From IMG/VR virus record IMGVR_UViG_3300020577_009322, positions 1-64,000 of that record: 64,000 bases of DNA; one strand, 5' to 3'. The translations under genes were made by a program, and so were the position numbers. Within the stretch, counting starts at the first letter, position 1. Each line of letters starts with the position of its first letter. The notes beneath the pieces were generated by a model. That model had not been told where the DNA came from. It worked only from the letters and a program-made list of their open reading frames with translations, and searched no databases. Positions 13,858-33,863 of this stretch are shown here, piece after piece. The DNA comes from a virus (lineage: Duplodnaviria > Caudoviricetes).

Positions 13858-14691
13858 TCATATCTTTACTATTTTATATCGTTTATTTTTATCTACTGAC
13901 CTTTCACCTGTATAAGTTTTCTGTAAAAAAGTATTAAATCCTTCTTGAACAATTTTACAATCAGGATATTCTTCCTGAAGTTGTACCCAGAATCCAAGAC
14001 CTTTACTCGCAAAGTCAGGATAAAATTCTCTCAAATTATCTATAAAGAACCGCCCATCCTTATTACGAAATGTAGGAACGCTATCCATAATACACGCTAT
14101 CTTATGAGCATTTCTTTTAATATCTATATTTAGTAACAATCTCAATGCTAAAATACTCATATCCTTTTCCTTACTATTCATCATTCTATGAAGCCTTATC
14201 CCCATTTCTTCAGTTATATCCTCTTTACCAAAAGATAAATTGATGGGATCATATAAAGGTTTTTCTCCTAAAAGTGATAAATTTCGTGGTGCATCTGGAT
14301 TACGCCAACTATCTTTTATATATACCTCTATTATTCTTCCTCCACTTATTATTCTTTTATGAGAACTATCATCTGTCCAATATCCTTTATCACACTCATA
14401 TAGTTCTTCAGAATATCCACTTCCTACTAAACTTTCTACGTTTGATTTTCTAACTACTACATAATCACAATCCTTAATGTTAGATACCTTAGTAAATCCT
14501 ACCTTATTTAGGTTTCTTATTGGAATATTATCATCCATAATAAATAGCTTACTACTTACAGGAATTTCGTCAACGAATTTAAGATTATTTACTAATCTAT
14601 CCACATCTTCTTTCAAATATACAGTTGCTGTAGAACGTGTCTGTTTTCCATACCAATCTGTTCCAAGTATCTTAATCTTTCTCTCTTTCAT
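13858..14691 (-). CDS. Hypothetical protein with possible BRCT-like region and the shared SxDxE motif
   Basis: Paralogous to 15011 and 16199; RLHRMMNSKEKDMSILALRLL. Confidence 0.6.
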   Translation of the reverse strand: MKERKIKILGTDWYGKQTRSTATVYLKEDVDRLVNNLKFVDEIPVSSKLFIMDDNIPIRNLNKVGFTKVSNIKDCDYVVVRKSNVESLVGSGYSEELYECDKGYWTDDSSHKRIISGGRIIEVYIKDSWRNPDAPRNLSLLGEKPLYDPINLSFGKEDITEEMGIRLHRMMNSKEKDMSILALRLLLNIDIKRNAHKIACIMDSVPTFRNKDGRFFIDNLREFYPDFASKGLGFWVQLQEEYPDCKIVQEGFNTFLQKTYTGERSVDKNKRYKIVKI

Positions 14692-15011
14692 TAATAATAT
14701 GTTTTTACTTTTTCAAACTCTTCCTTTAAATCTAGATACATTTGCAGTTTTTCTTCGTGAGAAGGATTATCTTTTTCTATTAAACGTTTTCTTAACTCTT
14801 TCATTTCACATTTCATTGCTGCATATTTCTCTTTTATATCACTATAACTATCTGATAGTAATTTCTGCCATTCGTCTAGATCTACAGTATCCTCTACAGC
14901 TTGAAAATATCCAGATATATATCCTTCTCTGGCAACATGAAAACAACCCTTTTTCCAAGTAGCTCCGGCATAATCCTCAGCAAACTTTTCTATACGTGTT
15001 AATTCTTTCAT
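14691..15011 (-). CDS. Hypothetical protein
   Basis: Coupled ORF. Confidence 0.55.
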   Translation of the reverse strand: MKELTRIEKFAEDYAGATWKKGCFHVAREGYISGYFQAVEDTVDLDEWQKLLSDSYSDIKEKYAAMKCEMKELRKRLIEKDNPSHEEKLQMYLDLKEEFEKVKTYY

Positions 15012-15649
15012 TATCTTAGATTTACATATTTTTGTTTTAGTGTCTTTACTATACTTTTATAGGTACGAGATTTCTTTATCAAATAAGGTGATTTAATCTG
15101 AGCTAATAATAATACATATTCTTTCTCGTTTATTTGGCTATCAAAGCCAAGTAATATTTCCATTCCTAAATTTAACATCTCTTTGTCTGGAGAAGTAAGC
15201 ATTCCTGCTATTCTATCATATTCTGAATTATCCATTTTCCTTGGAATTTCTCCCTTATAAAGAATATCAGTATCCTTTATGATTGGTTTTCCTGACATTA
15301 CAGCCTCATGACACTTTATTACTTCATTTATATGTTTCAATTTAGTAATTGTATCTATTTCACCAATTTCTCTAGAGTGCCAATTACCACCAAAAAGATT
15401 ATATGGTGTTGATATATATCTTACCTTCTGTGGAAGTAACATAACATCAGCTTCTGCTACATTATATACTATCTTATTATTTGGAAAACTTTTTTTAAAT
15501 TTAGTACGAGGAATATCAGAGAAGGAATCAATATATACCTTTTCACCATCATTTAATTTTCTCTGTAAAAATTTAATATTGTTATGTATATCCGAGTGAA
15601 TCTTATCATAATCTATCTTCTTTATCTTATCTCCTATCTTATATTTCAT
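15011..15649 (-). CDS. Hypothetical protein with possible BRCT-like region and the shared motif
   Basis: RIAGMLTSPDKEMLNLGMEILL. Confidence 0.6.
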   Translation of the reverse strand: MKYKIGDKIKKIDYDKIHSDIHNNIKFLQRKLNDGEKVYIDSFSDIPRTKFKKSFPNNKIVYNVAEADVMLLPQKVRYISTPYNLFGGNWHSREIGEIDTITKLKHINEVIKCHEAVMSGKPIIKDTDILYKGEIPRKMDNSEYDRIAGMLTSPDKEMLNLGMEILLGFDSQINEKEYVLLLAQIKSPYLIKKSRTYKSIVKTLKQKYVNLR

Positions 15650-15659
15650 ATTATGTTCT

Positions 15660-16205
15660 TTAACTTCCTGTAATAAATGAATTAAAACCCTCTTCCTTTA
15701 TCTCCTTCTCTACCTCTATCCCACACGTTTCCATTAAATCTTTAGTATGTTTCTTATTTCCACCAACTGCATATCTACATTTTGCTTCCCATATTACTTC
15801 TAGTGGAGCTACTCTATAGATAAAGTCTTCATATTCAATATGTTGATATCTTCTTCTTGGATCTATTTTAACATCCACATGTACATCTCCTATAGATAAG
15901 AGACAATCAAATTCTTTTCCGACACTGGCTGTTTTCTCTGCTATCATTTCTGCTTTATCAAATAGTATATAGTATGGAACAACTATATCCAAATCTGATT
16001 TACTTGTCTTCCATCTATCTAGTCTTATTCCGTAAAGAAATAATGCAAGACTGCCACCTATAACTACTTCTGGATGCTTTTCAAGCAAGCTTTTAGCCGT
16101 ATCAAGATTAAGATTCTTTTTAATGTCTTCTTCTTCTTTAAGACGAGTAGCTAATGCTTTCATCTCATCATCTCCTGCAAACATTTTCTTTATTTTATCT
16201 AACAT
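15660..16205 (-). CDS. Nucleotidyltransferase (pol-beta superfamily) with N-terminal shared motif
   Basis: VIGGSLAL...SDLDI signature; N-terminal KIKKMFAGDDEMKALATRL. Confidence 0.75.
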   Translation of the reverse strand: MLDKIKKMFAGDDEMKALATRLKEEEDIKKNLNLDTAKSLLEKHPEVVIGGSLALFLYGIRLDRWKTSKSDLDIVVPYYILFDKAEMIAEKTASVGKEFDCLLSIGDVHVDVKIDPRRRYQHIEYEDFIYRVAPLEVIWEAKCRYAVGGNKKHTKDLMETCGIEVEKEIKEEGFNSFITGS

Positions 16206-17071
16206 TCTTTTAGTATTAATTGTTTATCAGTTTTAATATGTGTACGTATCCAGTCGTTAAATGCTGCAATTACAATTACATCATTTGGGCTATCTAATAT
16301 TAGAGTAAACCAAAAAGATGGTGAATGCTTAAGTTCAGTTATATTTCTAAAATCCACCTGTATCTTTCTTAGAATAGTTTTTAATTCTATATTAGTCTTT
16401 CTCTTTGGAGATCTTATCCAGTTTTCCCAATACAGAGCTATCAGTAAACGAATATGACTCTTACATTTATCATAATCGTATCCTGTTAAAATATTCATTC
16501 CCATCTGAATTATTTCAGGATCTGAAGCACCTAACATTTGACCTATACTTTTATAACTTTCCTCAGTAATTACATTATCTGAAGATAAATTAATATCCGT
16601 AATGTCTATTAAACGCTTATCTAATATTTTATCTATTTCTACTGTTCGTTCTACTTCTTTTTCATAATAAGGTTGAGAAAGTATATGACCAAGATTGCTG
16701 TAATCGATTGTATATACATTAGAAGTTGGATCAATACGATAGTTGCCAAACTGTATTTTCCTTTTTAGGAATTCATCTAAAGACATTTTGTCTATTATAA
16801 TTACATCAGCTTTATCTATATCATGTACTATCTTATTCTCTGGAAAACTTTCTTTAAACTTCTTCTTCGGAAAAAGAACATTCGACATAAAATAAACTTT
16901 ATCCCCTTTCATAAGTTCTCTTTCTGTAGTATAACTCTTACTCTTGCTAGTAAAAACTTCATATTCATCTTTTGTAACTACTAGTAGATCCCTTACTACA
17001 TCCTGTCCTTTACCTATTCCATTCTTATAAGAATATTCTATCGTTTTATACTTTATTGTCTGTGTTATCAT
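16199..17071 (-). CDS. Hypothetical protein with possible BRCT-like region and the shared motif
   Basis: SIGQMLGASDPEIIQMGMNILT. Confidence 0.6.
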   Translation of the reverse strand: MITQTIKYKTIEYSYKNGIGKGQDVVRDLLVVTKDEYEVFTSKSKSYTTERELMKGDKVYFMSNVLFPKKKFKESFPENKIVHDIDKADVIIIDKMSLDEFLKRKIQFGNYRIDPTSNVYTIDYSNLGHILSQPYYEKEVERTVEIDKILDKRLIDITDINLSSDNVITEESYKSIGQMLGASDPEIIQMGMNILTGYDYDKCKSHIRLLIALYWENWIRSPKRKTNIELKTILRKIQVDFRNITELKHSPSFWFTLILDSPNDVIVIAAFNDWIRTHIKTDKQLILKEC

Positions 17072-17439
17072 ATTATATTATCTGTTATATTTGTTCTGTT
17101 TAAACGTATATATTCTCTTACTATTTCTCCGACTTCATATGCATTATCTTCCTTAATCAATTCTAATAGTCTTGAAGTATATTTAGTATAATTTTGTAGA
17201 ATACTATATCCTAATAATATCATCTCTCTATCTTCACTATCAATCATTTCCTGAATTTTATTAAGATCAAGAGAAGGATTTCTTCTTCTAACAACATCAA
17301 TCTCTCTATTTATTATTGAGTGTGCCATAAAGTAAACACTTTCATTACTAAGTCCTACTCTAGTCTCAGATGCATACATTTCTGTAGTTAAAAATGGACC
17401 CATACTTGATACAATTCTTATATTATCTGTTATAGGCAT
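17068..17439 (-). CDS. Shared-motif small protein
   Basis: KIQEMIDSEDREMILLGYSILQ. Confidence 0.6.
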   Translation of the reverse strand: MPITDNIRIVSSMGPFLTTEMYASETRVGLSNESVYFMAHSIINREIDVVRRRNPSLDLNKIQEMIDSEDREMILLGYSILQNYTKYTSRLLELIKEDNAYEVGEIVREYIRLNRTNITDNII

Positions 17440-17450
17440 ATTATTAATTT

Positions 17451-17480: not shown

Positions 17481-17485
17481 ATTAA

Positions 17486-19698
17486 TTAAGCTGTAATCAT
17501 CTTCAGCAAAGCTGGACGTATAGCAAATTCTTTAAATTTTGGTAATACGCACAATTTCTTTAATGAGATAATACACAAATCTGTAGAAAGCATTCCACTT
17601 TCTAAGATCTCTGCATAATTAGTAACCATTTTCTTGGTATAATCCTTCTCATTAACTAATGCATAATTAAGAAGACGTTTAGTCATAATAGCAGCAATAT
17701 CCTGCCTTTTATCTTTACCTTCTTTAATTACACTTTTCAGTTCTTTCTTACTCCACTCAATATCATTAGTAAGTAACTGATGAGGACTAGCTAACTTATC
17801 CAAACCATTCTTAATAAAGGTAGTGAACAATACAATATGTTCATTTGGAAGTGATCCCATACCTAAATTCATGATCAGATCCAGATCTTTATTAAAGTCA
17901 GGAATACCACTAATACTATCAAAGTATTTAGTCCAAATCCTCAAATTACCTTTAGCTAAGGTATTACCCTCTTTATCTTTTTCTACAGCTCCCTCGATTA
18001 CCTCAGGGTGCTTGAGCATAAAATTAATCAATTCATATTCTCATCAAGCTCTTTATCTTGATCTCTATACCTTTATATATTCGTATAGTTTAGACTATAT
18101 CATCACCTATTTCATTATAGGTGTTGGGCGCTCGTGGATGGATTATATTCTCTTTCGAGTTTCACCATCTAGTCGTTGAACCGGCCATAGCCATTTAAGC
18201 TATGGATAGGCTGCTGATTACCTGTTTCACTACAGGCTTTCCAGCAATTCACCCAATTAAGATGCATTAACAAAAAACTAAAGTTTTACCACGAAACTTC
18301 TTACCAACCTTTATGGCATAGGCTATATTCTGGTAAGTTTTTCTATCTCCATTGGTATATTCAACATATTCTGTGATAGAGTCAAATATTCTCTTGTCTT
18401 CCACTACTAAAATTTTCTTACAAGTACCACTAGTTTGCTTATATTTAGGTATTTTCTTAACCTTCTTATAGCTCCATTGAAATCCTCCACTAGATTTATT
18501 CTTTAATCCATTTTGGACTTGAATACCTAATTGTCTTAGTACTTCTCTACCACTTGACCATTCTTTCAAGAAATTTCCATCTTTGTCATATTGAAAAACC
18601 TTTCTTGATGTAGAAGGGTTGTTCATTTGAGTCGTTGGAGTAAGAACTGTATTATATACAGGATTTAAAGACTGTATAAAACATTCCTCTTCTCTTATTA
18701 AATTTTTATGGTTACTTGAATTTAGATGGAATCTTTCATTATGTAATGATAGTATCTCAAATTTGAAATCATCTTCACCATATTTGTTGAATATTCTTTG
18801 TAATCTACTTACATGACAGTTATTTCTTTTTAGGTTATTTCTATGATCCTTGCACCTTTTTGAAAGGGAAAGAGCACTACCTATATAGAACAAACCATTA
18901 TGTAATGTGGTAATCTTATATATCCCAGATTTATCAGGAATATTTTGATAATCTTTAAACATTGTATATAATTTATACCAAATATAATACAATAAATCTA
19001 GACTATCAAATAATTTTGTATATTTTTTCACATCTGCCATCAACACCGTATCCTTCAGCAAATTCGGAAGCCCAGATATTAACATCTGCCTTCATATTTA
19101 TTTGTAAACGCCTGGTTTTCTGAGCACTATCTTCACTCTGAACCATAAAATCCTGATCACTTGGATTACAAGTTAATACAATTGTTGAACCTTCTGGTAA
19201 AGCCCAAGAGGTATATCTTTGTTCATCAATTAAAGTCATAGTGGCATTAGCCATCATTGGAGTACACCTGTTAAAATCATCCAATACCAATAATACTGGT
19301 TTATCCTCCTTACCTTGGATCCAACTAGGTTTAGCATATGAAGTTCTGCTCTCATTTAATGCTGTATAGCCCATTGTAATATAGTGAGATAATACTTTAT
19401 CTGCAACCCATAAACATTCCTCATTAGCAGTACCATGACCTTTACAGATCTTATACTCATAAAGTGGTAATCCAATCAAGTCGCATACCTCAATCTCTGA
19501 CACGTTTAACCTAACATAATTAAAATCCAATTCCTGACTTAACTGTTTAACTACAGAAGTTTTAGCTGTTCCTGGCATACCCTCAATTTCAATAGCAATA
19601 GGTACCTTCCCCGCTTTAGATAATTTTACGTTATTATCAACGAAATAATGTAATAAATTTTTAACTTGTAATGAGTTTAACTCGTTTTTGTGTGCCAT
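17486..19698 (-). CDS. MoxR-like AAA+ ATPase, spliced (exons 19698-19030 and 18028-17486; ~403 aa)
   Basis: Walker A GMPGTAKT, Walker B LVLDDFNR; junction VDGRC|INFMLKHPE restores a continuous frame. Confidence 0.85.
18029..19029 (-). mobile_element. Group I intron in the AAA+ gene
   Basis: P AATTGCTGGAAA, Q AATCAGCAG, R GTTCAACGACTA, S ATGATATAGTCT; exon ends in U and intron ends in G. Confidence 0.9.
18267..18962 (-). CDS. Intron-encoded GIY-YIG homing endonuclease
   Basis: SGIYKI...FYIGS; NUMOD-like VFQYDKDG; start at ATG 18962. Confidence 0.9.
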   Translation of the reverse strand: MFKDYQNIPDKSGIYKITTLHNGLFYIGSALSLSKRCKDHRNNLKRNNCHVSRLQRIFNKYGEDDFKFEILSLHNERFHLNSSNHKNLIREEECFIQSLNPVYNTVLTPTTQMNNPSTSRKVFQYDKDGNFLKEWSSGREVLRQLGIQVQNGLKNKSSGGFQWSYKKVKKIPKYKQTSGTCKKILVVEDKRIFDSITEYVEYTNGDRKTYQNIAYAIKVGKKFRGKTLVFC

Positions 19699-20048
19699 TT
19701 TCTCTGTTTTAATTGTTTTTTCTGTTCTTGTTTATTTGTTATTACACATGATCTTTCTATAACCTTATGTCTGCCAACTCTTGTAGATGATTCTTCTTTA
19801 TAACAATCTCTCTTTTCTGATAGAAAGGGTTCTATTGTTTTCCTATCTATTGTGTTAAATATTCTGTTAAATATTCCTTGCTCTCTTGATGCAAGAATTA
19901 TTGCTGAAGGATCAAAAAATGTTCGTAATTCCCAATAATCCTCATACTTATTAGTATTATCACAGAATATAGTTACTGCTAGTTCATTCATTTCCTCATC
20001 AGAACTTCTTATCATATCTACAAGTCTATGTATTAACTGCTTTTCCAT
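19677..20048 (-). CDS. Shared-motif small protein
   Basis: RLVDMIRSSDEEMNELAVTIF. Confidence 0.65.
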   Translation of the reverse strand: MEKQLIHRLVDMIRSSDEEMNELAVTIFCDNTNKYEDYWELRTFFDPSAIILASREQGIFNRIFNTIDRKTIEPFLSEKRDCYKEESSTRVGRHKVIERSCVITNKQEQKKQLKQRKWHTKTS

Positions 20049-20253
20049 TTTTTAAATAATTTTCACCTTCTTCTTTACCTAACTGATATGCTCTACCTGC
20101 CAGCAATGCTTTATATTGACTAGTTGAATAATCCCAATCTCTCGATGTTTCGAATTCTTTTCTTAATATAACTTTAGCCAACTCTTGCATTTCTTCATCT
20201 CCATTTAGCATAGCATTTAATCTATTTATTTCAGTCATCATCATCATAATCAT
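20026..20253 (-). CDS. Shared-motif small protein
   Basis: RLNAMLNGDEEMQELAKVIL. Confidence 0.65.
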   Translation of the reverse strand: MIMMMMTEINRLNAMLNGDEEMQELAKVILRKEFETSRDWDYSTSQYKALLAGRAYQLGKEEGENYLKNGKAVNT

Positions 20254-20635
20254 ACCGATTTGTAGATATATCTATAATCTTTTTACTATTCTCTTTTAAA
20301 AATTCACCAACTAAAGTTCTTTCTTTGAAAAATACAGATAACTTCTTTATCTTTTTATATTCATTTTCTATATCCATTAAAAGATATTGTGTTACTGTTG
20401 TTATTCCATTTTTGAGAAGATGTGATAGTAAATTTCTAAGATTCTTTATTTCCCTCTTTTGCTTTAGAAATAGATATTTCCCTTTCTCTCCATAAGAAAC
20501 ACCACCATTTAAATAGAGAAGGATTTTGTCCATGTCATCCATTTTTGCTGGTAACTTCTCTAACATTAGTCTTCCCAGTCTTCTCATGTTTTTATCTTTA
20601 GATATTAACATGTTATTTATCTTAGTGGGGTCCAT
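20231..20635 (-). CDS. Shared-motif small protein
   Basis: KINNMLISKDKNMRRLGRLML. Confidence 0.65.
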   Translation of the reverse strand: MDPTKINNMLISKDKNMRRLGRLMLEKLPAKMDDMDKILLYLNGGVSYGEKGKYLFLKQKREIKNLRNLLSHLLKNGITTVTQYLLMDIENEYKKIKKLSVFFKERTLVGEFLKENSKKIIDISTNRYDYDDDD

Positions 20636-20919
20636 AGTAATTCAAATAATTCTGTTTTAATTTTATCTGTTTCATTCACAAGTTTATTCATCTCAATATT
20701 AATTACTTCAAAAACAACTCTCTTTGCTCTATCTAAAGCATCATTTCTTAATTCAATAGTATAAGATGGTAAGGGCCATAAAATAGACATACCCAGGTCT
20801 TGCATCTCTATATCTTTACTATCGAGCATATCAAGAATCTTTAAATACTTCCTCAAGATTTCTGTAGATGATTCACTATCTTTCTTCATATCATTGTATT
20901 TCTGCAGAAATACCTGCAT
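20617..20919 (-). CDS. Shared-motif small protein
   Basis: KILDMLDSKDIEMQDLGMSIL. Confidence 0.65.
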   Translation of the reverse strand: MQVFLQKYNDMKKDSESSTEILRKYLKILDMLDSKDIEMQDLGMSILWPLPSYTIELRNDALDRAKRVVFEVINIEMNKLVNETDKIKTELFELLWTPLR

Positions 20920-21160
20920 CAGTTAATGCTACTTTTATAGGAAGTAACTCTTCCATACTACCATTTCTAACCATACATTTTCCCTTATAATGAATAAGAT
21001 AAGCACATTGTTCTGCCTGCTCAGGAGAGTGCTTGGCATACTTTATCAAGCACTCTATTACCCACTCAAATGTATTTACATCATCATTCCAGACAATTAG
21101 CTTATTTTCTAACAAATCATCAATAGAAACATCTGATATTTCTTCTACTTCTTTTACCAT
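20891..21160 (-). CDS. clpS: ClpS N-end-rule adaptor
   Basis: LIVWNDDVNTFEWVIECL...QAEQCAYLIHYKGKC. Confidence 0.93.
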   Translation of the reverse strand: MVKEVEEISDVSIDDLLENKLIVWNDDVNTFEWVIECLIKYAKHSPEQAEQCAYLIHYKGKCMVRNGSMEELLPIKVALTDAGISAEIQ

Positions 21161-21194
21161 GATTATCTTTGTTGTTTTAAATGATGTAAAAATT

Positions 21195-21578
21195 TTATCT
21201 CATGTGGGCCAAACGTTTATATTTATTTTTTAAATATTCTATACTTTCTATCTCAGAGGGATACAAAGATTTTTCCAGAATATCAATTTCATTCAAATTG
21301 GTAGGATTATCTTTATTGAATTGTTCTTCCGCTTCAATAATATAATTCTTTCTTTGTTCCATTAATATTTGATTAGCATTGGTCATTTTTAAGATTACTA
21401 GATTATTTTCTTCTATCATTTGAGAAATTTTCTTAATATCTTCATTTCCTAAGATAAAACCTTCTTTCTTCATATTTCTCTCTCCTTCTAACTCTTTTAA
21501 TTTCTCTAATTTTCTCTTCTTATTTTCTTCTCCTGAGGAGAACATTTGTTTCCATTTCATATTTATTCCATTATCCAT
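21195..21578 (-). CDS. Hypothetical coiled-coil protein
   Basis: Coupled ORF; weak motif-like start KWKQMFSSGEE. Confidence 0.55.
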   Translation of the reverse strand: MDNGINMKWKQMFSSGEENKKRKLEKLKELEGERNMKKEGFILGNEDIKKISQMIEENNLVILKMTNANQILMEQRKNYIIEAEEQFNKDNPTNLNEIDILEKSLYPSEIESIEYLKNKYKRLAHMR

Positions 21579-24608: not shown

Positions 24609-24613
24609 AATTT

Positions 24614-25651: not shown

Positions 25652-26225
25652 GCAATGCTAAAATTCTGCTATCAACATTTACTTCACTTAAATCTTTTAT
25701 ACTTTCTATAGATTCTGGATCTTCTATTAAAGGTAATAAGTTAACTCTCTCCGCTAACATAAATATATATATATTATCCAAAGATAGGTTTTTATTTCTT
25801 AAAGTATAAGATCTATGATAAGATAATATATCTCTTATACTATTAATTTTTCCCTCTATTATCTTTTTACAAAAGGTTGGAGTAGGATATCTAAAGAAAG
25901 GTTTCATCAACTCAATATCACTCTTAAAGTACTTTTCCTTACACAAATCATTAAATACATCCATTCTACTCTTAGAAATTTTTACCTTCTTTGTCTTCTT
26001 ATTATATACCATCCACTGTAATAACTCACTCTTTTTATAGAAGGTTCCTGTATTACTAACTTTAATTGTATCACATATTTTATAGTATCCTATCTTCTCT
26101 TCATTATCTATTTTCTTACTATATAAATTATCTGATAATCCATAATGGAAAAATATGTATTTTTGTAACTGTTTATCTTCCAATTCAAGAAATTCATCTA
26201 TATTCATATTTTCCTTATTTATCAA
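25503..26225 (-). CDS. Hypothetical protein
   Basis: 240-aa ORF coupled to the rIIA-like gene. Confidence 0.6.
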   Translation of the reverse strand: MINKENMNIDEFLELEDKQLQKYIFFHYGLSDNLYSKKIDNEEKIGYYKICDTIKVSNTGTFYKKSELLQWMVYNKKTKKVKISKSRMDVFNDLCKEKYFKSDIELMKPFFRYPTPTFCKKIIEGKINSIRDILSYHRSYTLRNKNLSLDNIYIFMLAERVNLLPLIEDPESIESIKDLSEVNVDSRILALHEFKCKLQDVSKLQERYDKWNSEQSKKYDSLYGSRANNPWNQAIQIVDS

Positions 26226-28473
26226 AATCCATCTTATAATACTTCCAATTCATCTTTATCGTTCTTTGTCTTGCAATATCATGCATGGCACGTATTGATT
26301 TTTCCTGATAAGTATTTCCCTTTTGTACAGTTAACATTCCACCCAAAGCGAAGAAATCAACAAAATCAAATTTGTCAATATCTTCTTTTACTTTATTATA
26401 TGTTTCCCATATTTCACTATCATATAATTTCAATGTATCTACCAAATCTACCAAATCTTTCATAAAATCCTCGTGTCTATGAGATATATCTGTACAATAT
26501 ACTTTGGCATATTTCTGTAATTTTTCTAAATCATCTCTAAATTTAGATGATAGAAAATTACCTATTATTTCCTTATTCCTAAAAGTACTAAGATATTCAT
26601 TCATCATTTTATCTATTAGATAGGCTGTAACCCCTCTCCCAACAGTCTTATGTTTACCCTTGAAGAATTCATCTACTTCCATAAAGTTATGTAATTTTAA
26701 TTGTTTTAGATAAGTTTGCTGTCTTTCTGTAACTATACATGCTTTAACTGTAGTACCATCATGAAATAATCGATAGACTAAATCTAACTTCCTACGTTTA
26801 TCTTCAGTACCATAGACATGAAAAAATGGTCTACTATATAAGTCTTTTACTTTGATTATTCTCTCTTCAAATTTGCATGACCAATCAGATGACCTCTTAT
26901 CCATTGGTTTACAATATTTTACACCAATCTCTCCAGACATATCTACTAAAGATACTTTCTCTTTCTTATTTGGTGTCTTTCTGACTGTTGTGTTAAAATT
27001 AGCAGGAATCTTTATATTACTTACTTTAATCAGATAATCTTTCTCAATAGAATCCTCTACTAGTTTGGCTTGTCTTATTGAATCTCTCCATAGATTTATT
27101 CCTGATGATAGGTAAGTAGATCTCATAGTAGCTTTACTACATAAACCTAGTAATCTTGTATAGGATAAATCTACTTTCTCTAAACATATCTTGTTCTTTT
27201 TATAAAGACCTGCTCCTTTATACTCACTATTTATATAGGATGCCATTTTCTTACTAATAGGAATATCAACTAAAATCTTTTTATCATGCTGCCAGTGCAT
27301 CCAGTATCTAGGTTTTATTTTGGAACCAGTATTACTGATATCATTAATATTAAAATATAGATTCTTTCCATTAGAGGTAGAAGATAGAAATTTCTGAATT
27401 ACTTTATCATTTACATCTTTAAATTCTATCTCCTTACACTTTTCTAAAGAAAATGGTAATAGACTATCAATTATATAGGTAACTCCTTCTATATTAACTC
27501 TTTTAGAAGACCCCACTAACTCAATATATTTCTTAACAGATGTCAACTCATCTGGTATATTCTTGTTATATCTTTTAATAAACCAGGTAGATACCTTCTC
27601 TATCTTCTTCTTGATAATCAATTCATAATCAATAGTATATTGTAGATTTTCTCGAGTTAAATCAGCATTCAATCCATCTGCCATGCTAAATTTTAAACCT
27701 ATATTTAAATGAATAGGTTTCATTCCTAATCTCTCCCAATTAATAGGATAGTAATACTGATCCAGGCAGATATGCATATCTGCATTCTTTGAAAGTGTAG
27801 ATATCTGAATATCATCTGTTTGAAATATTTTAAACTCACTATTTAATGTCAGTAGTTCTCTATAACGGCTAATGAGAGTAGGATCAAACTGAAACATTAT
27901 ATCCTTAAAATAACATAACTTTCTCTTCATGTTTTCTATAAAAAGAGAAATTGTTGAGGTATCATATCCAAGTGAAGATCCTACTAAAACCTCAAACAAT
28001 ACATATTTATCTTCAGTAGTTTCTTCATATTCACTTATGTTATGAGTTAATCCCACTCCCTCTACTTCCTTAAGAATAGCATTGAATTTTCTGCCGTTCT
28101 TTACTACTGTATATTTCCATTCAGGTTTAAAAGCTGATACTGATATACTACCAATACCATGCTCCCCCATCTGACAATTTTCACTACTTGTTTTCTCTGT
28201 AGACTTTTCACTCTCCAGGATAGTACATACTGTTTTCTCAAAATGTTCCCTACTATCAAAGGATTTACCGGTATCCCTCACATAAAATATATAATCACCT
28301 TTCTCTAGTTTTATTCCAACTTCTACAGGATCTGTTTGTCCTATAGAACGATGACTATCTACTGCATTTTGACAAATCTCACTAATAAATGAGTATTTAT
28401 CACTGTATAATTTTTTTCCAAATACCTGATGTAATTTTGCTGTGTTTCCACTTAATCCTAGCTGTTTCTCCAT
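26215..28473 (-). CDS. GHKL (Hsp90-like) ATPase, RIIA-like
   Basis: LYSDK...EICQNAVDSH, VRDTG, MGEHGIG, LTRENL. Confidence 0.8.
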   Translation of the reverse strand: MEKQLGLSGNTAKLHQVFGKKLYSDKYSFISEICQNAVDSHRSIGQTDPVEVGIKLEKGDYIFYVRDTGKSFDSREHFEKTVCTILESEKSTEKTSSENCQMGEHGIGSISVSAFKPEWKYTVVKNGRKFNAILKEVEGVGLTHNISEYEETTEDKYVLFEVLVGSSLGYDTSTISLFIENMKRKLCYFKDIMFQFDPTLISRYRELLTLNSEFKIFQTDDIQISTLSKNADMHICLDQYYYPINWERLGMKPIHLNIGLKFSMADGLNADLTRENLQYTIDYELIIKKKIEKVSTWFIKRYNKNIPDELTSVKKYIELVGSSKRVNIEGVTYIIDSLLPFSLEKCKEIEFKDVNDKVIQKFLSSTSNGKNLYFNINDISNTGSKIKPRYWMHWQHDKKILVDIPISKKMASYINSEYKGAGLYKKNKICLEKVDLSYTRLLGLCSKATMRSTYLSSGINLWRDSIRQAKLVEDSIEKDYLIKVSNIKIPANFNTTVRKTPNKKEKVSLVDMSGEIGVKYCKPMDKRSSDWSCKFEERIIKVKDLYSRPFFHVYGTEDKRRKLDLVYRLFHDGTTVKACIVTERQQTYLKQLKLHNFMEVDEFFKGKHKTVGRGVTAYLIDKMMNEYLSTFRNKEIIGNFLSSKFRDDLEKLQKYAKVYCTDISHRHEDFMKDLVDLVDTLKLYDSEIWETYNKVKEDIDKFDFVDFFALGGMLTVQKGNTYQEKSIRAMHDIARQRTIKMNWKYYKMDFDK

Positions 28474-28772
28474 TATTTTCTTTCTTTTAACTCAATTTTG
28501 TAAATCACCATAGTTTTCATCATCAAATCATTATGTATATCACTTATCTCTCTTATATTATCCAGGAAGAACCATGTATAGTCTCTAAGAATTTTCCATC
28601 TCCCTGCATTGAATTTAACAATATGATAACTTATTCTATATGCATGACATAATTTTTGTCCCAATTTCTTTAACTCTTTATCATCACTAGCAAATAGAAG
28701 AATAATTTTAGAACGGACATTCGTTAGATCTGTCCCAGTCACCTTTGTTCCACATAATCTCTTGTTTTCCAT
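28473..28772 (-). CDS. Shared-motif small protein
   Basis: KIILLFASDDKELKKLGQKLC. Confidence 0.6.
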   Translation of the reverse strand: MENKRLCGTKVTGTDLTNVRSKIILLFASDDKELKKLGQKLCHAYRISYHIVKFNAGRWKILRDYTWFFLDNIREISDIHNDLMMKTMVIYKIELKERK

Positions 28773-29842
28773 TAGCCTTTAGGATTTTGTTTATTCGAGT
28801 AAATACTCTTTTATGTTCCCATTCCATTTTCTTATGAGAAGCTGCAGCAGGGTGTTCTACTTTAATTATGTAATTACCTAATGGATTAATAAATTCTTCC
28901 ATTCTTTCTGATACTTTTCCTGCCAAGACATATATAATCGATGGTTTGCTTCCCATAATGTTCTCAAGAAAATATTTCTGAAATTTCTCCCAATACTTCT
29001 TATGTGAAGAAGTCTTATTCAATTTACATGTCAAATCGGTATTTGTTAGCATAACTCCTTGATTAAGAAGATAGTCTAGATTAAGTGGTTTCTCAATCTT
29101 TGTCCCAGTATCTTTCTCAATTCCTTCATAAAATAATTCCAGAGAGTCTTGTAATTCTCCATCTGGAGAGTTACTACAATCCATAGCTATTCCAGTAGCT
29201 TGTGGTACTTTATTTTTATATCTGCGTGGATATGGCAATTTGTTATCTGTAAAGCTTTTTATCTCTACATTCTATGATTTTCTATATAGTCATAGTTCAG
29301 CATATATCATCACCTGTAATGAGATAGGTGTTGGGCGCTCGTGGATATATTATATTCTCCTAAGAGTTTCAATATCTATGCGTTAGACCTTTTAAGATCA
29401 TTTAAATCTTAACTTGGTACGGGATTGACTGTTTCACTACAGTTATTCCCCGTTTCACCCAATTTTACATGGACCAGTTTATATTTCAGATAATCTGTAA
29501 CATTAGATCTTATCAAGTCGATTAGTTTTGAGCAACTCTTTGAGGATATTCTGATAGTATTATCTGACTTATTATAAGTTGCTCTAATTTCTCAATCTTC
29601 TCTTTCTGTATATCTTTTTATTTTGGTTAATCCATTAAGTACCATACAACTTTAATATCTTCTGGTATTGTCTTGGCAAATACCTTAAAGGTATTATCAC
29701 TATCAGGTAAAATAACCTCTTTCTTAGCATCTTCTTTTATTTTCTCATATATATCAAACATATCTTTACTTTCAATAAAAGGCTTAAACAGTTCTGCCCA
29801 AGCACCAAATTTTCCAGCAAAATCATTATAGTCTAACTGCAT
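28708..29842 (-). CDS. ung: Uracil-DNA glycosylase (family 1-like), spliced (exons 29842-29630 and 29235-28708; ~246 aa)
   Basis: IKVVWYLMD|PYP, QATGIA, QGVMLTNTDLT, EHPAAA. Confidence 0.85.
29236..29629 (-). mobile_element. Group I intron in UDG with a degenerate endonuclease remnant
   Basis: Core elements similar to the other introns (GGTCTAACGCATAG, ATGATATATGCTGAAC); U/G junctions at the D|P catalytic loop. Confidence 0.85.
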
Positions 29843-30050
29843 CTTTATATAATTTATTTATTATTATTATACATAATTCTCTAATCTGCACGTCTTTGCT
29901 ATTTATCATAGACATAAATTTGTAAAATTGTTCTCTGTTTATATCATAGTTAATATACAAATCTCTTATCTTTCTTATTATTAAATCTGTCCTACGTATA
30001 CAAACATTATTTGGACGAGTGTGTTCTAAAGGATAATAAAATCTTGTCAT
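29826..30050 (-). CDS. Shared-motif small protein
   Basis: KFMSMINSKDVQIRELCIIII. Confidence 0.6.
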   Translation of the reverse strand: MTRFYYPLEHTRPNNVCIRRTDLIIRKIRDLYINYDINREQFYKFMSMINSKDVQIRELCIIIINKLYKDAVRL

Positions 30051-30232
30051 TTACCTTTATATTTTCTGGTTTTCTTATCTACACCCCAATATTTCTCCCA
30101 TAATTGATTGAGCATAGAAAATCCTAAATCTCTCATATCACTATTAGAAGAGTATATCATCCTACTAATTGTTTCTGCCTGCTCTTTTGGCAACTTACCA
30201 TATTGTCTTAAGTGTTTCAAGCGAGGATTCAT
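30047..30232 (-). CDS. Shared-motif small protein
   Basis: TISRMIYSSNSDMRDLGFSML. Confidence 0.6.
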   Translation of the reverse strand: MNPRLKHLRQYGKLPKEQAETISRMIYSSNSDMRDLGFSMLNQLWEKYWGVDKKTRKYKGK

Positions 30233-30453
30233 TTTATTATATTATATATCTTCATTTTAGCCATCTTGTTACAAATAGCTATAATTTTATTAGTATTATC
30301 CTGCCATTCCTTCCATTCTTTCTTTTTCCTCTTGTCTGGAGAAGAAGCAAACAATCTCTCTATCTCATCAAAATAATCTATTGTATTTTCTGAATGAAAT
30401 GGTTTTTCCTCTTCTTCCGCTTTGGTAATGGGGTTCTTTTTCTTTTTAACCAT
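30229..30453 (-). CDS. Hypothetical protein
   Basis: Coupled ORF. Confidence 0.5.
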   Translation of the reverse strand: MVKKKKNPITKAEEEEKPFHSENTIDYFDEIERLFASSPDKRKKKEWKEWQDNTNKIIAICNKMAKMKIYNIIK

Positions 30454-30785
30454 AAATCTGTACCAATTTTAACTGCTAATCTCTTTAACTCAGGATCCTT
30501 ACTATAAAACATAGTAGATATTTTATCATATTGTTCTTTGTTTATATGTCCTATATCTAGTAAATAATCCATACCAAATACTACTCTCTGGGATACTGGT
30601 TTGTATGGCAAATTTTTGTCTATTTTATGCAGGTTTGGAAATAATCTATTTTTCATACTTAGAGTTCTATTTCGTAAATTAGTAAAAAGAAGTCTCTTAT
30701 TTGCTCTATTTCTAAGATAATAAAAGCTATATTTCCTACCAGTATTAAAGGTAACTAGATGTCTATTGTTATAGTTCTTTTTCAT
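30378..30785 (-). CDS. Shared-motif basic protein
   Basis: KISTMFYSKDPELKRLAVKIG. Confidence 0.6.
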   Translation of the reverse strand: MKKNYNNRHLVTFNTGRKYSFYYLRNRANKRLLFTNLRNRTLSMKNRLFPNLHKIDKNLPYKPVSQRVVFGMDYLLDIGHINKEQYDKISTMFYSKDPELKRLAVKIGTDLWLKRKRTPLPKRKKRKNHFIQKIQ

Positions 30786-31230
30786 TAGTTATACCTTTTA
30801 ATAACCCCTTACCTAAACTAAATAATTCCTCATCTCCGTTTATCATATTCATTATTTTGGTATATGTCTTTCCTTTAATTCTACCCGATGCTAGTAATTT
30901 CAATAAAGCCACTTCAGCCTGCATCTTCTCCATTTTTTCTATATCCGGAATGACTGCCTCAATATGTCTTGCTGTAACCCATATTTTATTACTTAAGGCT
31001 ATATTTTCTTTTCCACAATTTGTACATCTTATTCCACCTTTTCTACCTCCAGGATACACAGATCCTAACCAGTATAAAGTCCATTTATTATTACTAACGC
31101 AATTACAAGTATCCTCTAGTAAATCGTTTACAATATAGTAAACATCTTTCTTAACTAAATATGTCTTATCAATAAAAGATATCCAATCATCTTTACCTAC
31201 TACCTGTTGACTTTTATAGAATTTTGCCAT
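30769..31230 (-). CDS. Zinc-ribbon protein with C-terminal shared motif
   Basis: CNC...CTNC; KIMNMINGDEELFSLGKGLL. Confidence 0.6.
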   Translation of the reverse strand: MAKFYKSQQVVGKDDWISFIDKTYLVKKDVYYIVNDLLEDTCNCVSNNKWTLYWLGSVYPGGRKGGIRCTNCGKENIALSNKIWVTARHIEAVIPDIEKMEKMQAEVALLKLLASGRIKGKTYTKIMNMINGDEELFSLGKGLLKGITNEKEL

Positions 31231-31677
31231 CTTCTTTTAATTTAATACGTTTCTCTCTGGACATGTAAACAATGTCCATTGCCAAATTTTTTAATTCTGG
31301 ATCTGTACTATTTAGCATTGAGAAAATTTTTTCATTATTATCAATAACTTTTGCATCAATACATTTTTCTATTTCTCTTACAATAAAAGCTTCTCTTACA
31401 GCATTATAAGCCTGATGGTGCTTACCATAATCGTCCCATTTCGGATTCTGGGCTATTTTACCACCTATACTACAGAGTACTATTATTTCACTTTCTGAAT
31501 CAGCCCATAATTTTGCTATACCTTTGATTAGTTTTCTGCTAGCACGTTTTCTTGCTAATTTGTAAGATTTCTTTTCATTTCGTGCTGATCTGAAGATAAC
31601 ATTATGTATAGTTTATCAGCTTCATCCTTTTCTATAATTTTCTCTCTCACTAGAAAATCTATTACAAAATAGCTCAT
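31214..31677 (-). pseudogene. Frameshifted shared-motif gene(s) missing from the ORF track
   Basis: MSYF...KLYIMLSSDQHEMKRNLTN* (31677-31555), and -1 frame ...KIFSMLNSTDPELKNLAMDIV...* (to 31214). Confidence 0.6.
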
Positions 31678-31688
31678 TTTGGATATAT

Positions 31689-32081
31689 TTATTTCCCTTT
31701 ATTTAATGCTTCCAGAATTGTTATAGCTAAGCTACACATTTCTTCATCAGAAGCATCAAGCATTTTAGTAAACTTATCAGCTTGTTCTTTCTCCAGATTT
31801 CTTATATTATAAGGGAATTTTGGAGAACGATCTCCCGTTTTTCTAAATTCCAGCATTCCACTCTCAAGTAACTTATTCACTAATTTTTCTGTAGATGAAT
31901 TTCTTGACAAGTAATCGTTACCTAGATAATCTTGTAATCTGTTATTTGCTTTAGCTTCACTTGTATATACACGAGTATTTCCTATGAATATCTGAGTTCC
32001 AAGAAAATATATACCCCAGCTATCTGCATCCTCTAATCTTAATTGATTAAGACTTTCTATTGCTTCTTTATATTTGTTCAT
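31689..32081 (-). CDS. Shared-motif small protein
   Basis: KFTKMLDASDEEMCSLAITIL. Confidence 0.65.
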   Translation of the reverse strand: MNKYKEAIESLNQLRLEDADSWGIYFLGTQIFIGNTRVYTSEAKANNRLQDYLGNDYLSRNSSTEKLVNKLLESGMLEFRKTGDRSPKFPYNIRNLEKEQADKFTKMLDASDEEMCSLAITILEALNKGK

Positions 32082-32413
32082 TTATAATAATTTTTAAGTA
32101 TTTCTTTACCTAGTTCTTGTAATTCCTCATCTGCAGACGCAAGTAATAATGTGAGCTTTTTTACTATTTTCTTATCTTTACATTTACGAGTAAATTCGCT
32201 CCTTATTAGGAATAACATATCCTCTTCGTCAATAACATCGTTTTTTTCTTTTTCATACAGAGTATTTACATATCTATAATCCATATCAGCCTTATAAATA
32301 TCTATAGGAATACCTAGATCTTTATAATATTTTACTAATTGACGTTTATAGCAATCAACCATCTTTTTTATTACCGTCTTATTAATCATATTATTTCTTT
32401 TTGTAATATCCAC
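32078..32413 (-). CDS. Shared-motif protein, paralog of 32391..32702
   Basis: LFLIR...KCKDK...KLTLLLASADEELQELGKEIL. Confidence 0.65.
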   Translation of the reverse strand: MDITKRNNMINKTVIKKMVDCYKRQLVKYYKDLGIPIDIYKADMDYRYVNTLYEKEKNDVIDEEDMLFLIRSEFTRKCKDKKIVKKLTLLLASADEELQELGKEILKNYYK

Positions 32414-32702
32414 TCATTATTTGTTCAGACAAGTCATGCATTTCTTTATCTTTAGACATTTGCATAAGAGTTATCTTTTCTAAAACATCTTTATCCTTAC
32501 ACTTTTTGGAGAAAATTACTCTAATTAAAAATAATCTATCATCTAGTGATAATCCCTCATCATCCTTAAATGTATTTATTAATACATTAATAAATACATT
32601 ATCAACATCTGATTCATATCCTGTAGGATACATGTTTATTGACTTATAATATTCTTTTACCTCTCTATCATAAGATTTAATCATCCTTAGAAATATATTC
32701 AT
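32391..32702 (-). CDS. Shared-motif protein, paralog of 32078..32413
   Basis: LFLIR...KCKDK...KITLMQMSKDKEMHDLSEQIM. Confidence 0.65.
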   Translation of the reverse strand: MNIFLRMIKSYDREVKEYYKSINMYPTGYESDVDNVFINVLINTFKDDEGLSLDDRLFLIRVIFSKKCKDKDVLEKITLMQMSKDKEMHDLSEQIMSGYYKKK

Positions 32703-33676
32703 TTCAGTAACTTTTTATCTTTCATAAATTTTTCTAATCCACCTAATCCATACTTTCTTGCATATCCATAAGCGTCATTTATTTCCGGAAGTAGATCCTT
32801 GGGAGTATTAATATACTTCCATTTGTTTGTGGAGGTAATTTCCTTACACTTTTTTACTCCATCCCAGTCACTTCCATACCATATCCAAGGACTCTTACTG
32901 ATTCCATTAATCATTTCTACAGTACTCTTGTCAAATATTTTCACAGCCTCTGCTTGAGTAGCTATACAACAAGGTGTAATCATTGTAGTAACAATCATAT
33001 CCTTTACTGATTTTTGTACTATTAAATCATCACACTCCTTCATGTTATTATAATTCCATAGATGATGAAAGGATACATTATTACGAAAACGATCCCCTTT
33101 ATCTCTTTCTGGGAAGTATATCTTTACTGCATCCTCCTCTTCACAGTAATAAGCAAAGACCTTTTCTCCATCTCTTATTTTTACTCTTCTTCTATTTATA
33201 GCCAAATCCTTTACTGCAAAACAATTCATTTTTCTACAGTGAGTCTCTGTAACCCCTGCTTCGTTCCAGTATACATGATGTTCCTTACCAAATGGCTTTT
33301 CTGTAAAGGAAATAGGAATATAACTTCTATCTTCGTCTGGTTGAATAATAATAGAGGATTTTACTATATGAGTACTTTTCCCTAATCCAAACTCATTAAT
33401 TATTTTTTCCTTGGCTTCCTTATGAGTGAGATTAAACAACCTTTCAACAAATGTCATGGCGTTTCCTACTTCTTCTGTAGCCTGATCTTTCCAGAACCAT
33501 ATACCATTTTTAGGAAAAACACCCCATGACAAGTGTCTTTCTTTCTTTCCCCAGGGCCTATTCATTAGACGAGAAGCGCTTCCAAGATACTTATAATAGA
33601 TATCATAACCACCATTTGTAGCAGATAATATATCATCTACAGAGAGATAGTCTTCTCTTCTTACTCCTTTTATCAT
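32699..33676 (-). CDS. DNA primase (crAss-like, Toprim)
   Basis: WKDQAT..GN...FV, KIYFP, KSVKD, SDWDG; position in the replication block. Confidence 0.75.
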   Translation of the reverse strand: MIKGVRREDYLSVDDILSATNGGYDIYYKYLGSASRLMNRPWGKKERHLSWGVFPKNGIWFWKDQATEEVGNAMTFVERLFNLTHKEAKEKIINEFGLGKSTHIVKSSIIIQPDEDRSYIPISFTEKPFGKEHHVYWNEAGVTETHCRKMNCFAVKDLAINRRRVKIRDGEKVFAYYCEEEDAVKIYFPERDKGDRFRNNVSFHHLWNYNNMKECDDLIVQKSVKDMIVTTMITPCCIATQAEAVKIFDKSTVEMINGISKSPWIWYGSDWDGVKKCKEITSTNKWKYINTPKDLLPEINDAYGYARKYGLGGLEKFMKDKKLLK

Positions 33677-33863
33677 TGATAATTATTTTACATAAATTTC
33701 TCATTTCCTCATCTGCAGAAATCATCATAAGATAATGACGATACTCTGCCTCTGTTATTTGTCCTCTTCTTCTATACTTTCTTAAAGTACTGGATAGATA
33801 TTCTACTTCTAGCTTTTCCGAATAAGATTTCCATGTATTAGATCTCCACATCTTCCTTTTCAT
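33633..33863 (-). CDS. Shared-motif small protein
   Basis: HYLMMISADEEMRNLCKIII. Confidence 0.6.
   Translation of the reverse strand: MKRKMWRSNTWKSYSEKLEVEYLSSTLRKYRRRGQITEAEYRHYLMMISADEEMRNLCKIIINDKRSKKRRLSLCR

Follow-up and report, generated by a model that had tools for sequence, protein, structure and literature searches.

Many proteins of bacterial vWA-MoxR conflict systems carry effector-associated domains (EADs), small, non-enzymatic and mostly alpha-helical modules that lie at the N- or C-terminus, reach up to 22 copies per genome, and are encoded beside a MoxR AAA+/vWA pair (Kaur, Burroughs, Iyer, Aravind 2020, PMC7159879). They are proposed to couple variable proteins or effectors to the core machine; by definition one copy is fused to a core component, and the partners are mostly enzymatic effectors (PMC7159879). 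Here, we describe a comparable arrangement in a virus of the Caudoviricetes, using positions 1 to 64,000 of the record IMGVR_UViG_3300020577_009322 (hereafter the window), which are the first 64 kb of a complete phage genome of 155,463 bp with direct terminal repeats and 31.6% G+C. About two dozen small early proteins of this window share a motif with a core of some 22 residues, and this sharing is real and far beyond chance. Most of them are encoded between positions 13,858 and 33,863, around the genes of a GHKL ATPase, a MoxR-type AAA+ ATPase, a DUF2201 protein that joins a zincin-like peptidase to a VWA domain, and a ClpS homolog. EADs appear to be the closest described concept, on a comparison of descriptions. 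The preliminary description of the locus had recognised no described system in it. This stands as far as the family goes, since neither Pfam nor PHROG has a model of it, whereas its logic does match that of the EADs.

Like EADs, the modules are small, non-enzymatic, helical and numerous (about 27 in this one genome), they are encoded near a MoxR AAA+/VWA pair, and they take N- or C-terminal positions, here also internal ones. They differ from EADs in that the AAA+, VWA-zincin, and GHKL proteins have no motif, the bodies have no recognisable enzymatic domain, and the setting is a lytic-type phage, not a cellular defence island. One kind of carrier, which we call class M, is a conserved neighbour of the AAA+ gene and is not known as a core component. 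The locus also recalls the MoxR/VWA pairs RavA-ViaA, NorQ-NorD, CbbQ-CbbO, and CobS-CobT, with an AAA_3/AAA_5-type ATPase and a VWA protein encoded a few genes apart, and adjacent in relatives. However, the VWA domain is here fused to the zincin-like peptidase (DUF2201), and the phages of this clade add two further proteins to the pair, an Hsp90-like GHKL ATPase and a putatively BRCT-like/ARM-like protein. Viruses also have multigene families with a common docking motif, many members of which occur in one genome. In the ankyrin/PRANC (F-box-like) host-range proteins of poxviruses, for example, a shared short helical module likewise recruits a common machine, the SCF ubiquitin ligase of the host, while the rest of the protein varies; copy number differs among close relatives, and the proteins are full-length homologs. 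In contrast, the bodies studied here are unrelated.

The consensus of the core is [DE]-K-I-x-x-M-L-x-S-x-D-x-E-M-x-x-L-[GA]-x-x-[IL]-L. The regular expression S.D.E[MLIVF]..[LIMVF][GAS] matched 11 times in the minus-strand frames of the window and never in its plus-strand frames. An iterated 22-position hidden Markov model (HMM) identified 18 copies at a domain E<1e-3 in the 155-kb genome, and around 6 weaker ones. To avoid circularity, we also trained an independent HMM on 24 copies from other phage contigs only. It recovered 17 copies of at least 10 bits in this genome, all on the coding strand, whereas 20 residue-shuffles of all frames gave none (maximum 9.1 bits). The codons of the conserved residues are mixed (Ser9 is AGT in 10 copies, TCT in 7, and AGC in 1; Leu17 has five different codons) and the 66-nt cores have a mean pairwise nucleotide identity of 51%. 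Since Ser9 uses both AGT and TCT codons, selection acts at the protein level, as had been proposed from codon use.

In total, the genome has around 27 copies: 15 strong, about 8 weaker but credible, and 1 doubtful in the window, plus 3 in two open reading frames (ORFs) outside it (genome 79,029-79,602, plus strand), one of which (79,303-79,602) holds two tandem copies 27 residues apart. All 24 frames initially listed as carriers were thus recovered except ORF 25039, which is doubtful. They are given below, named hereafter by their first position; L001, L062, L063, and L078 are contigs of related phages.

13858-14691, minus strand: class-M paralog, 277 amino acids (aa), weaker motif at aa 165-186 (HMM E 0.027; profile A6 2e-9); full-length member of the 15011 family (family alignment A4)
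15011-15649, minus strand: class-M carrier, 212 aa, strong motif at aa 145-166; possibly BRCT-like alpha/beta N-domain and four-helix ARM/HEAT-like C-domain
15660-16205, minus strand: carrier, 181 aa, weaker N-terminal short-turn variant at aa 3-23 (HMM E 0.002)
16199-17071, minus strand: class-M paralog, 290 aa, weaker motif at aa 174-195 (A6 5.5e-13)
17068-17439, minus strand: carrier, 123 aa, strong internal motif at aa 60-81 (HMM 6e-11)
19677-20048, minus strand: carrier, 123 aa, strong N-terminal motif at aa 7-28 (HMM 6e-11); family of 5 clusters
20026-20253, minus strand: carrier, 75 aa, weaker short-turn variant at aa 9-30 (HMM 1.5e-4)
20231-20635, minus strand: carrier, 134 aa, strong N-terminal motif at aa 4-25 (HMM 4e-9)
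20617-20919, minus strand: carrier, 100 aa, strong motif at aa 26-47 (HMM 1.5e-10)
21563-21895, minus strand: carrier, 110 aa, strong N-terminal motif at aa 12-33 (HMM 5e-11); homolog in L078
24614-25039, minus strand: carrier, 141 aa, weak but credible N-terminal motif at aa 10-31 (HMM 0.006; A6 0.003)
25039-25293, minus strand: 84-aa ORF with a doubtful degenerate copy (HMM E about 2); ortholog kept in L001 and L062
25280-25651, minus strand: carrier, 123 aa, strong motif at aa 23-44 (HMM 8.5e-9); positional counterpart in L062/L063 retains the motif
28473-28772, minus strand: carrier, 99 aa, strong motif at aa 21-42 (HMM 5.5e-10); L078 homolog at the same position
29826-30050, minus strand: carrier, 74 aa, weaker C-terminal motif at aa 43-64 (HMM 0.005; its A6 match is circular, the copy being in the A6 training set)
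30047-30232, minus strand: carrier, 61 aa, weaker motif at aa 20-41 (HMM 3e-4; match to the 'mid' regular expression)
30378-30785, minus strand: carrier, 135 aa, strong motif at aa 87-108, then a K/R-rich tail (HMM 2.5e-10)
30769-31230, minus strand: carrier, 153 aa, weaker C-terminal short-turn variant at aa 124-144 (HMM 0.07; A6 0.048)
31217-31612, minus strand: 132-codon open frame that lacks an upstream start codon, strong motif (HMM 8e-11; first Met at codon 98)
31689-32081, minus strand: carrier, 130 aa, alpha/beta body, linker, and strong C-terminal hairpin at aa 102-123 (AlphaFold2 model)
32078-32413, minus strand: carrier, 111 aa, strong C-terminal motif at aa 85-106 (HMM 4e-9); paralog of 32391
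32391-32702, minus strand: carrier, 103 aa, strong C-terminal motif at aa 75-96 (HMM 3.5e-11)
33633-33863, minus strand: carrier, 76 aa, strong motif at aa 41-62, then a K/R-rich tail (HMM 3e-7); homolog in L078
54465-54827, minus strand: outlying carrier, 120 aa, strong N-terminal motif at aa 8-29 (HMM 6e-11); family of 5 clusters

The carriers had been described as mostly unrelated proteins with the motif attached to differing bodies at either end or inside, and both statements are borne out. After masking of the motif, an all-versus-all BLASTP of the window carriers links only 15011 with 16199 (E 1.6e-8 outside the motif) and 32078 with 32391 (1.4e-5). Profile-profile comparison (hhalign) of three carrier families with orthologs elsewhere gave E values of 1e-8 to 1e-10, and the similarity is confined to 30-49 columns around the motif. 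With its flanks, the shared unit extends to 30-50 residues and includes a helix N-cap segment, [IL]-[TPN]-x-E-[EQ]; some families add a short segment ahead of it. Judged from these profiles, the unit is somewhat longer than 22 residues, yet it is no full-length domain. Scans of the 10 strongest window carriers against Pfam and PHROG gave nothing meaningful, and the Pfam HEAT/Arm models did not match any of these 10 at E<=1. A few features of the bodies can be read from the sequence: 15660 has a G-G-S...D-L-D pattern like that of minimal nucleotidyltransferases (recognised by eye; no Pfam match), 21563 has two hydrophobic segments after the motif, and 30769 has a CxC...CxxC pattern (no Pfam match). 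The frame at 31217 overlaps a 40-codon ORF (31555-31677) that ends inside a degenerate motif, with a partial copy at 31558-31698. The stretch 31217-31698 is possibly a frameshifted or decaying carrier gene, or the site of a programmed shift.

Some features recur among the copies. In 15660-16205, 20026-20253, and 30769-31230 (minus strand), the turn lacks one residue, with M-x-x-G-D-[DE]-E-[ML] in place of M-L-x-S-x-D-x-E-M. Between 29826 and 33863, the C-terminal-hairpin carriers 30378, 33633, 30047, and the 31217 frame have a K/R-rich tail straight after the hairpin. Neighbouring small carrier genes at 19677-20919 and 32078-32702 (minus strand) recurrently overlap by 19-29 nt (22, 23, 23, 19, and 29), and overlaps of the same size are found at 24614 (22 nt) and 32391 (23 nt). 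Hence, the codons of an N-terminal hairpin lie over the 3' end of the preceding gene.

To assess the spread of the family, we built a profile from 43 copies of eight phages and searched 1.84 billion representative proteins with HMMER, with E values calculated for the whole library. This identified 152 proteins, each a cluster representative, at E<=1e-3. They are almost all small (44-330 aa, median 107 aa), and the only long match is a cellular HEAT-repeat protein. Most have a single copy (140 of the 154 database proteins), and carriers have at most two copies detectable by sequence, although P0133 shows three profile stretches. The motif lies in the N-terminal third of 79 database proteins, in the middle of 40, and in the C-terminal third of 35. 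Once it is masked, BLASTP separates the members into 105 components, 91 of which are singletons. The recurrent families are class M (13 members), the 17068-like proteins (8, namely seven database cluster representatives and our own entry P0003; alignment A11), the 31689-like proteins (7 cluster representatives, aligned with the L078 homolog in A7), and four families of 5 members each (19677-like, 54465-like, the two-copy 79303-like, and 'c103'). Among the 146 non-window proteins of the best 150 listed, Pfam gave only sporadic matches to HEAT_2 (2/146), HEAT, Arm (1/146), and Cnd1. By these comparisons, more than 100 bodies that are unrelated in sequence carry the hairpin within one clade, at the N-terminus, inside, or at the C-terminus, and the hairpin defines a previously undescribed family of small proteins. 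Since some members have only 44-61 aa, the hairpin itself must carry function.

A word-indexed protein search with the motif profile, which covered longer proteins, returned only the proteins of this genome. When viral contigs were scanned with a degenerate DNA pattern, 54 loci matched, close to the number expected by chance; only around 8 of them are real, and these yielded the first relatives. Profile iteration from the carrier families c187, c146, and c103, which are specific to relatives, found no homolog in this genome beyond the motif.

The motif is very probably a helix-turn-helix of the armadillo (ARM)/HEAT type that has been shuffled as a module. The preliminary description had likened it to a single HEAT/ARM hairpin, and three lines of evidence agree with this. 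First, when the motif profile is compared with PDB sequences, designed armadillo-repeat proteins come top (4rv1, E 2e-4; 4hxt, E 3e-3) with an alignment that passes through '..K-L-V-K-L-L-T-S-T-D-S-E..', and the HEAT repeats of Mot1 are also matched. Helices H2-H3 of an ARM repeat, or A-B of a HEAT repeat, are spaced in the same way (S-x-D-x-E-[MV]-x-x-x-[GA]-x-x-[IA]-L). Second, the motif forms a hairpin in two AlphaFold2 models. In that of 15011 (10 family members; predicted local distance difference test, pLDDT, of 79), an alpha/beta N-domain precedes a four-helix C-domain, whose first two helices (residues 141-151 and 156-167) are the motif and the best-predicted part of the model. In that of 31689 (8 homologs; pLDDT 77; predicted template modelling score, pTM, 0.67), an alpha/beta body (residues 1-81) and a linker lead to the motif as a terminal hairpin (helices 98-107 and 112-128). 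The two bodies differ in fold. Third, the C-domain of 15011 superposes on segments of importin-beta, gamma-COP, Timeless, beta-catenin, and designed ARM proteins with Z of 5-6.6; these scores are middling, yet the matches are almost uniformly ARM/HEAT. Foldseek found no PDB structure similar to the 15011 model at E<=0.001, an Atlas look-up of the same protein gave only scores below 0.9, and a VIA search of the 31689 body against PDB structures gave nothing above Z 3.9. The N-domain of 15011 matches BRCT with Z 5.4, which lends weak support to the BRCT-like bodies proposed for 13858, 15011, and 16199.

With ARM/HEAT repeats the hairpins share the helix-turn-helix spacing L-L-x-S-x-D-x-E-[VM]-x-x-x-[AG]-x-x-[AI]-L. 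However, canonical repeats form tandem arrays that build a solenoid, whereas a protein here usually has one hairpin and at most two, attached to a small unrelated body or, in proteins of 44-61 aa, with almost nothing else. Even class M has only two stacked hairpins and no alpha-solenoid array. Pfam models miss the copies of the 10 strongest window carriers, and Met is favoured at two core positions; position 6 keeps Met, and not just any hydrophobe. Across the database set, M6, S9, D11, E13, and L17 are 93-98% conserved, figures that are inflated because the set was chosen by the profile itself.

The phage is crAss-related. Its portal protein is distantly similar to those of crAss-like phages (21-23% identity), with Leptolyngbya phage Lbo-JY46 as the top match (27%). 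Megablast of 8 kb against a phage genome collection gave no match, so that no close genome is found there, and we gathered relatives through the GHKL and AAA+ proteins and one database match. All motif contexts recovered fall in one clade of environmental crAss-related phages, which includes the complete genome G001 (168.9 kb, 23% GC). The AAA+ protein is 77-80% identical to those of L062/L001 and 80-84% to that of L078. The minus-strand arm that bears the carriers is made of replication and nucleotide-metabolism genes (ribonucleotide reductase, DNA polymerase, DnaB-like helicase, ligase, UvsX-like recombinase, primase, Sak4-like protein, and UDG). The core genes at the centre of the carriers are the following.

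17486-19698, minus strand: MoxR-type AAA+ ATPase in two exons (about 19698-19030 and about 18028-17486); Pfam matches in exon 1
20891-21160, minus strand: ClpS homolog, 89 aa, no motif (PF02617, 58.1 bits for a cut-off of 23, E 7.5e-16)
22346-24635, minus strand: DUF2201 zincin-like peptidase with VWA, in two exons (about 24635-24340 and about 23392-22346)
26215-28473, minus strand: GHKL ATPase, 752 aa, Hsp90-like N-terminal domain, no motif (weak Pfam HATPase_c)

The relatives have a common block that consists of the GHKL ATPase, a class-M motif protein, the MoxR-type AAA+ ATPase, and the DUF2201 VWA-zincin, with UDG, primase, and often ClpS close by. Class M adjoins the AAA+ gene in all of them, upstream with a near-overlap in L065-L071 and downstream in L001/L062; in our genome, three class-M paralogs lie just downstream of it. 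In the distant relatives, as here, a small motif protein is encoded directly ahead of the GHKL gene and overlaps it. In this genome, the stop of 28473 and the start of the GHKL gene overlap, as do 19677 and the start of the AAA+ gene, the latter two by 22 nt. The number of motif copies is very variable.

G001 (complete, 168.9 kb): 3, all within 6 kb and interleaved with GHKL and AAA+ genes
L062, L001: 1-2
L067: 4
L065: 5
L066: 8
L078: at least 13 in 14.6 kb
This genome: about 27

Most of the copies of this genome are in small genes that lie between conserved genes of the replication module and are absent from its nearest relatives. In L001 and L062, the DUF2201 and AAA+ genes are direct neighbours, as are the primase gene and the homolog of 29627, whereas our genome has 8 small genes at the first of these junctions and about 10 at the second. 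Since the small genes are missing at both junctions, the motif genes form an accessory, lineage-variable layer between core genes.

The near-invariant residues, the more than 100 kinds of bodies, and the members made of little but the hairpin fit a shared protein-binding handle best, and this is most likely what the hairpin is. We propose that it would serve as a protein-protein coupling adaptor, a common handle in the manner of the EADs. In this proposal, M6, S9, D11, E13, L17, and G/A18 would make the contact with a single partner common to all carriers, which would gather many kinds of small bodies at the same place early in infection. That the hairpin is an adaptor to one common partner has, in our view, about even odds. 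The best candidate partner, on synteny only, would be the block of small motif protein, GHKL, class-M, MoxR AAA+, and VWA-zincin, which the phage ClpS accompanies in copy-rich genomes; the evidence for it is the conserved operon-like interleaving seen within one clade only, and we regard this identification of the partner as rather doubtful. As a whole, the explanation that we prefer (a coupling adaptor, with the block as its best candidate partner) has a probability of roughly 0.4. The GHKL and MoxR ATPases, the zincin-VWA, and ClpS look like a protein-remodelling toolkit. In the boldest version of this idea, an ARM-type docking tag would plug more than 100 kinds of small proteins into a phage proteostasis hub (GHKL, AAA+, VWA-zincin, and ClpS). 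We consider this version improbable; it would imply a programmable remodelling or destruction of chosen host proteins and a viral counterpart of EAD coupling.

The preliminary description had proposed that the motif routes cargo to this AAA+/VWA-peptidase/ClpS/GHKL machine. Several observations weigh against the block as partner, or against a common partner altogether. Profile searches of the genome found no motif copy in the AAA+, DUF2201, and GHKL frames, and when the 146 non-window proteins of the best 150 listed were scanned against Pfam, none had an AAA+, VWA, peptidase, or GHKL domain fused to the motif. The preliminary description had expected the motif to co-occur with the AAA+/DUF2201 pair. 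It does so within the one crAss-related clade, but three outside phages that carry the pair (Bacillus phage AR9, Vibrio phage Va1, and Achromobacter phage phiAxp-3) lack the motif in a profile search that detects 24 copies in this genome as positive control; Leptolyngbya phage Lbo-JY46 has none in the same search. Close relatives keep the block with 1-3 motif proteins, so it needs no library of them, and since all these genomes come from a single clade, their synteny is not independent evidence. The conserved positions are those of the ARM structural consensus (S-x-D-x-E-V...A..AL), so that folding alone could explain them. ClpS is present in the genomes with 4-27 copies and absent from G001 and the L062/L063 contigs (1-3 copies); this tracking of copy number is suggestive, although it amounts to about two independent contrasts and involves partial contigs. 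A complex prediction of the intact AAA+ protein of a relative with the C-terminal ARM-like domain of class M scored 0.14, below the mark, which speaks neither for nor against binding.

Some of these observations would suit a partner on the host side. The hairpin might bind one abundant host protein (a protease or unfoldase, RNA polymerase, or a defence hub), in which case the family would be a fast-evolving arsenal for early takeover or anti-defence and the AAA+/VWA block a mere neighbour. The genes are indeed small and overlapping, they lie in the early/replication arm, and their number varies from 1-3 to 13-27 among close relatives. Members as short as 44-61 aa could not accommodate a cargo domain, the motif is missing from other phages that have the AAA+/DUF2201 pair, and the copy-rich genomes also encode ClpS, an adaptor for a host protease. 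Yet the database-wide search found no cellular family with the hairpin, except for one generic HEAT-repeat protein, and the three copies of the complete, copy-poor G001 are operonic with the GHKL and AAA+ genes. On balance, we regard host-directed binding as unlikely.

Another explanation needs no outside partner. The hairpins of different proteins could pack on each other as in an ARM/HEAT solenoid, with class M as a hub and a coupling like that of EADs, which are themselves proposed to act homotypically (PMC7159879); this corresponds to the hetero-solenoid that the preliminary description gave as an alternative. Tandem copies 27-32 residues apart (genome 79,303-79,602; P0009, P0011, and P0017) show that units can stack in one chain. 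The hairpin of class M is the first of two stacked hairpins, a single hairpin with one hydrophobic stripe per helix would gain from a partner, and PDB 2ru4 is a designed-armadillo complex that self-assembled from two fragments. In most carriers, however, the extra helices or the body could cover the hairpin within the same chain, and relatives with few copies would offer few partners. We think such stacking quite improbable.

It also seems improbable that there is no common partner, the hairpin being only a stable folding unit (capping or nucleating) of proteins that each have their own function, either as the remnant of anciently duplicated paralogs or through reuse by gene fusion and fission. 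The identity of the conserved residues with the ARM consensus would then be expected, short phage proteins soon diverge past detection, and there are local paralogs and tandem runs (15011/16199/13858, 32078/32391, and five adjacent genes with an N-terminal motif in L066). But a conservation of 93-98% at M6/S9/D11/E13/L17 across more than 100 bodies is unusually strict for two helices, even if inflated by the profile selection, the two folded bodies are unlike, and the motif occurs at either protein end. As for a chance resemblance of amphipathic helices, which the low complexity of K/I/L/E-rich proteins in an AT-rich genome (31.6% GC) might produce, it is refuted with near certainty by the shuffled controls, by the lack of matches on non-coding strands and frames, and by the 152 database clusters.

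The family is thus real and undescribed, whereas the mechanism of the coupling adaptor is still a proposal. The early small proteins of large phages are mostly unannotated, and one structural element ties together about 27 of them here and at least 152 clusters from public metagenomes, which makes the hairpin a single experimental handle on an entire class of orphan genes. Should the partner be the GHKL/MoxR/VWA-zincin block, these would be, as far as is known, the first client set for a phage MoxR-VWA pair, and the system a viral analogue of EAD coupling; should it be a host protein, they would make up a large, new arsenal against a single hub of the host. Either way, a profile model is warranted, with which these genes would no longer be annotated as hypothetical proteins without relation to each other.

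The core genes had been delimited as continuous coding regions. The coordinates of ClpS and of the GHKL ATPase proved correct, whereas the AAA+ and HExxH-VWA genes each consist of two exons around an insert.

18029-19029, minus strand: group I intron in the AAA+ gene, core at 18072-18322 (RF00028, 83.6 bits for a cut-off of 50, E 1.6e-21)
23393-24339, minus strand: insert in the DUF2201 gene with a LAGLIDADG ORF at 23449-24183

The AAA+ intron is inserted after '...VDGRC', its last base is a G directly before exon 2, and it carries a GIY-YIG/NUMOD1 homing-endonuclease ORF (18267-19085, Pfam). Scanned as a whole, the 22-kb region gave no Rfam match at E<=0.01, whereas a 1.1-kb scan detected the intron. 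Exon 1 matches AAA_3 (2.6e-7) and AAA_5 (2.2e-6) in Pfam. The DUF2201 gene matches DUF2201_N, DUF2201 (VWA-like, 2.3e-9), and LAGLIDADG_3, and its insert is probably a second group I intron: partial RF00028 matches of 33 and 28.7 bits (cut-off 50), at 24180-24320 and 23407-23548, flank the LAGLIDADG ORF. Both genes are uninterrupted in L001, L062, and L078. Hence, the breaks result from an intron in the AAA+ gene and an intron-like insert in the DUF2201 gene, each with a homing-endonuclease ORF. An alternative genetic code was also considered for the broken genes and ruled out, as every frame is rich in all three stops. In L069, a homologous LAGLIDADG ORF lies at a different site of the same DUF2201 gene (13630-14295), and a third LAGLIDADG homolog of our genome is found at 118,051-118,908 (plus strand).

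A profile of four GHKL orthologs matches only TRAP1, Hsp75, GRP94, and Hsp90 chains in the PDB (best TRAP1, 3.5e-6, over residues 7-111), while the protein has no match to Pfam HSP90 or to PHROG. Its neighbours in the Atlas (language-model) are viral HATPase_c_3 clusters, one of which is named 'RIIA'. The protein is conserved throughout the clade. A phage protein like Hsp90 or rIIA, encoded beside a MoxR/VWA pair, may deserve separate study. Literature searches on phage DUF2201 proteins, and on HEAT or armadillo repeats in crAss-like phages, returned nothing relevant.

Elsewhere in the window, a second VWA protein (48531-49937, minus strand) is CobT_C-like with E 3.8e-4, just under the Pfam cut-off, and is adjoined by a GIY-YIG/NUMOD1 ORF (50665-51414) and short ORFs (region 48531-52202, minus strand). 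A second portable short motif, E-E-Y-L-F-P-[PE]-I, occurs on the minus strand at 61754-61768 and 62570-62584 of the window and at 67,099-67,113 of the genome. Two small proteins carry it at their very C-terminal end, and a third has it at the N-terminus. This genome may use more than one short shared tag.

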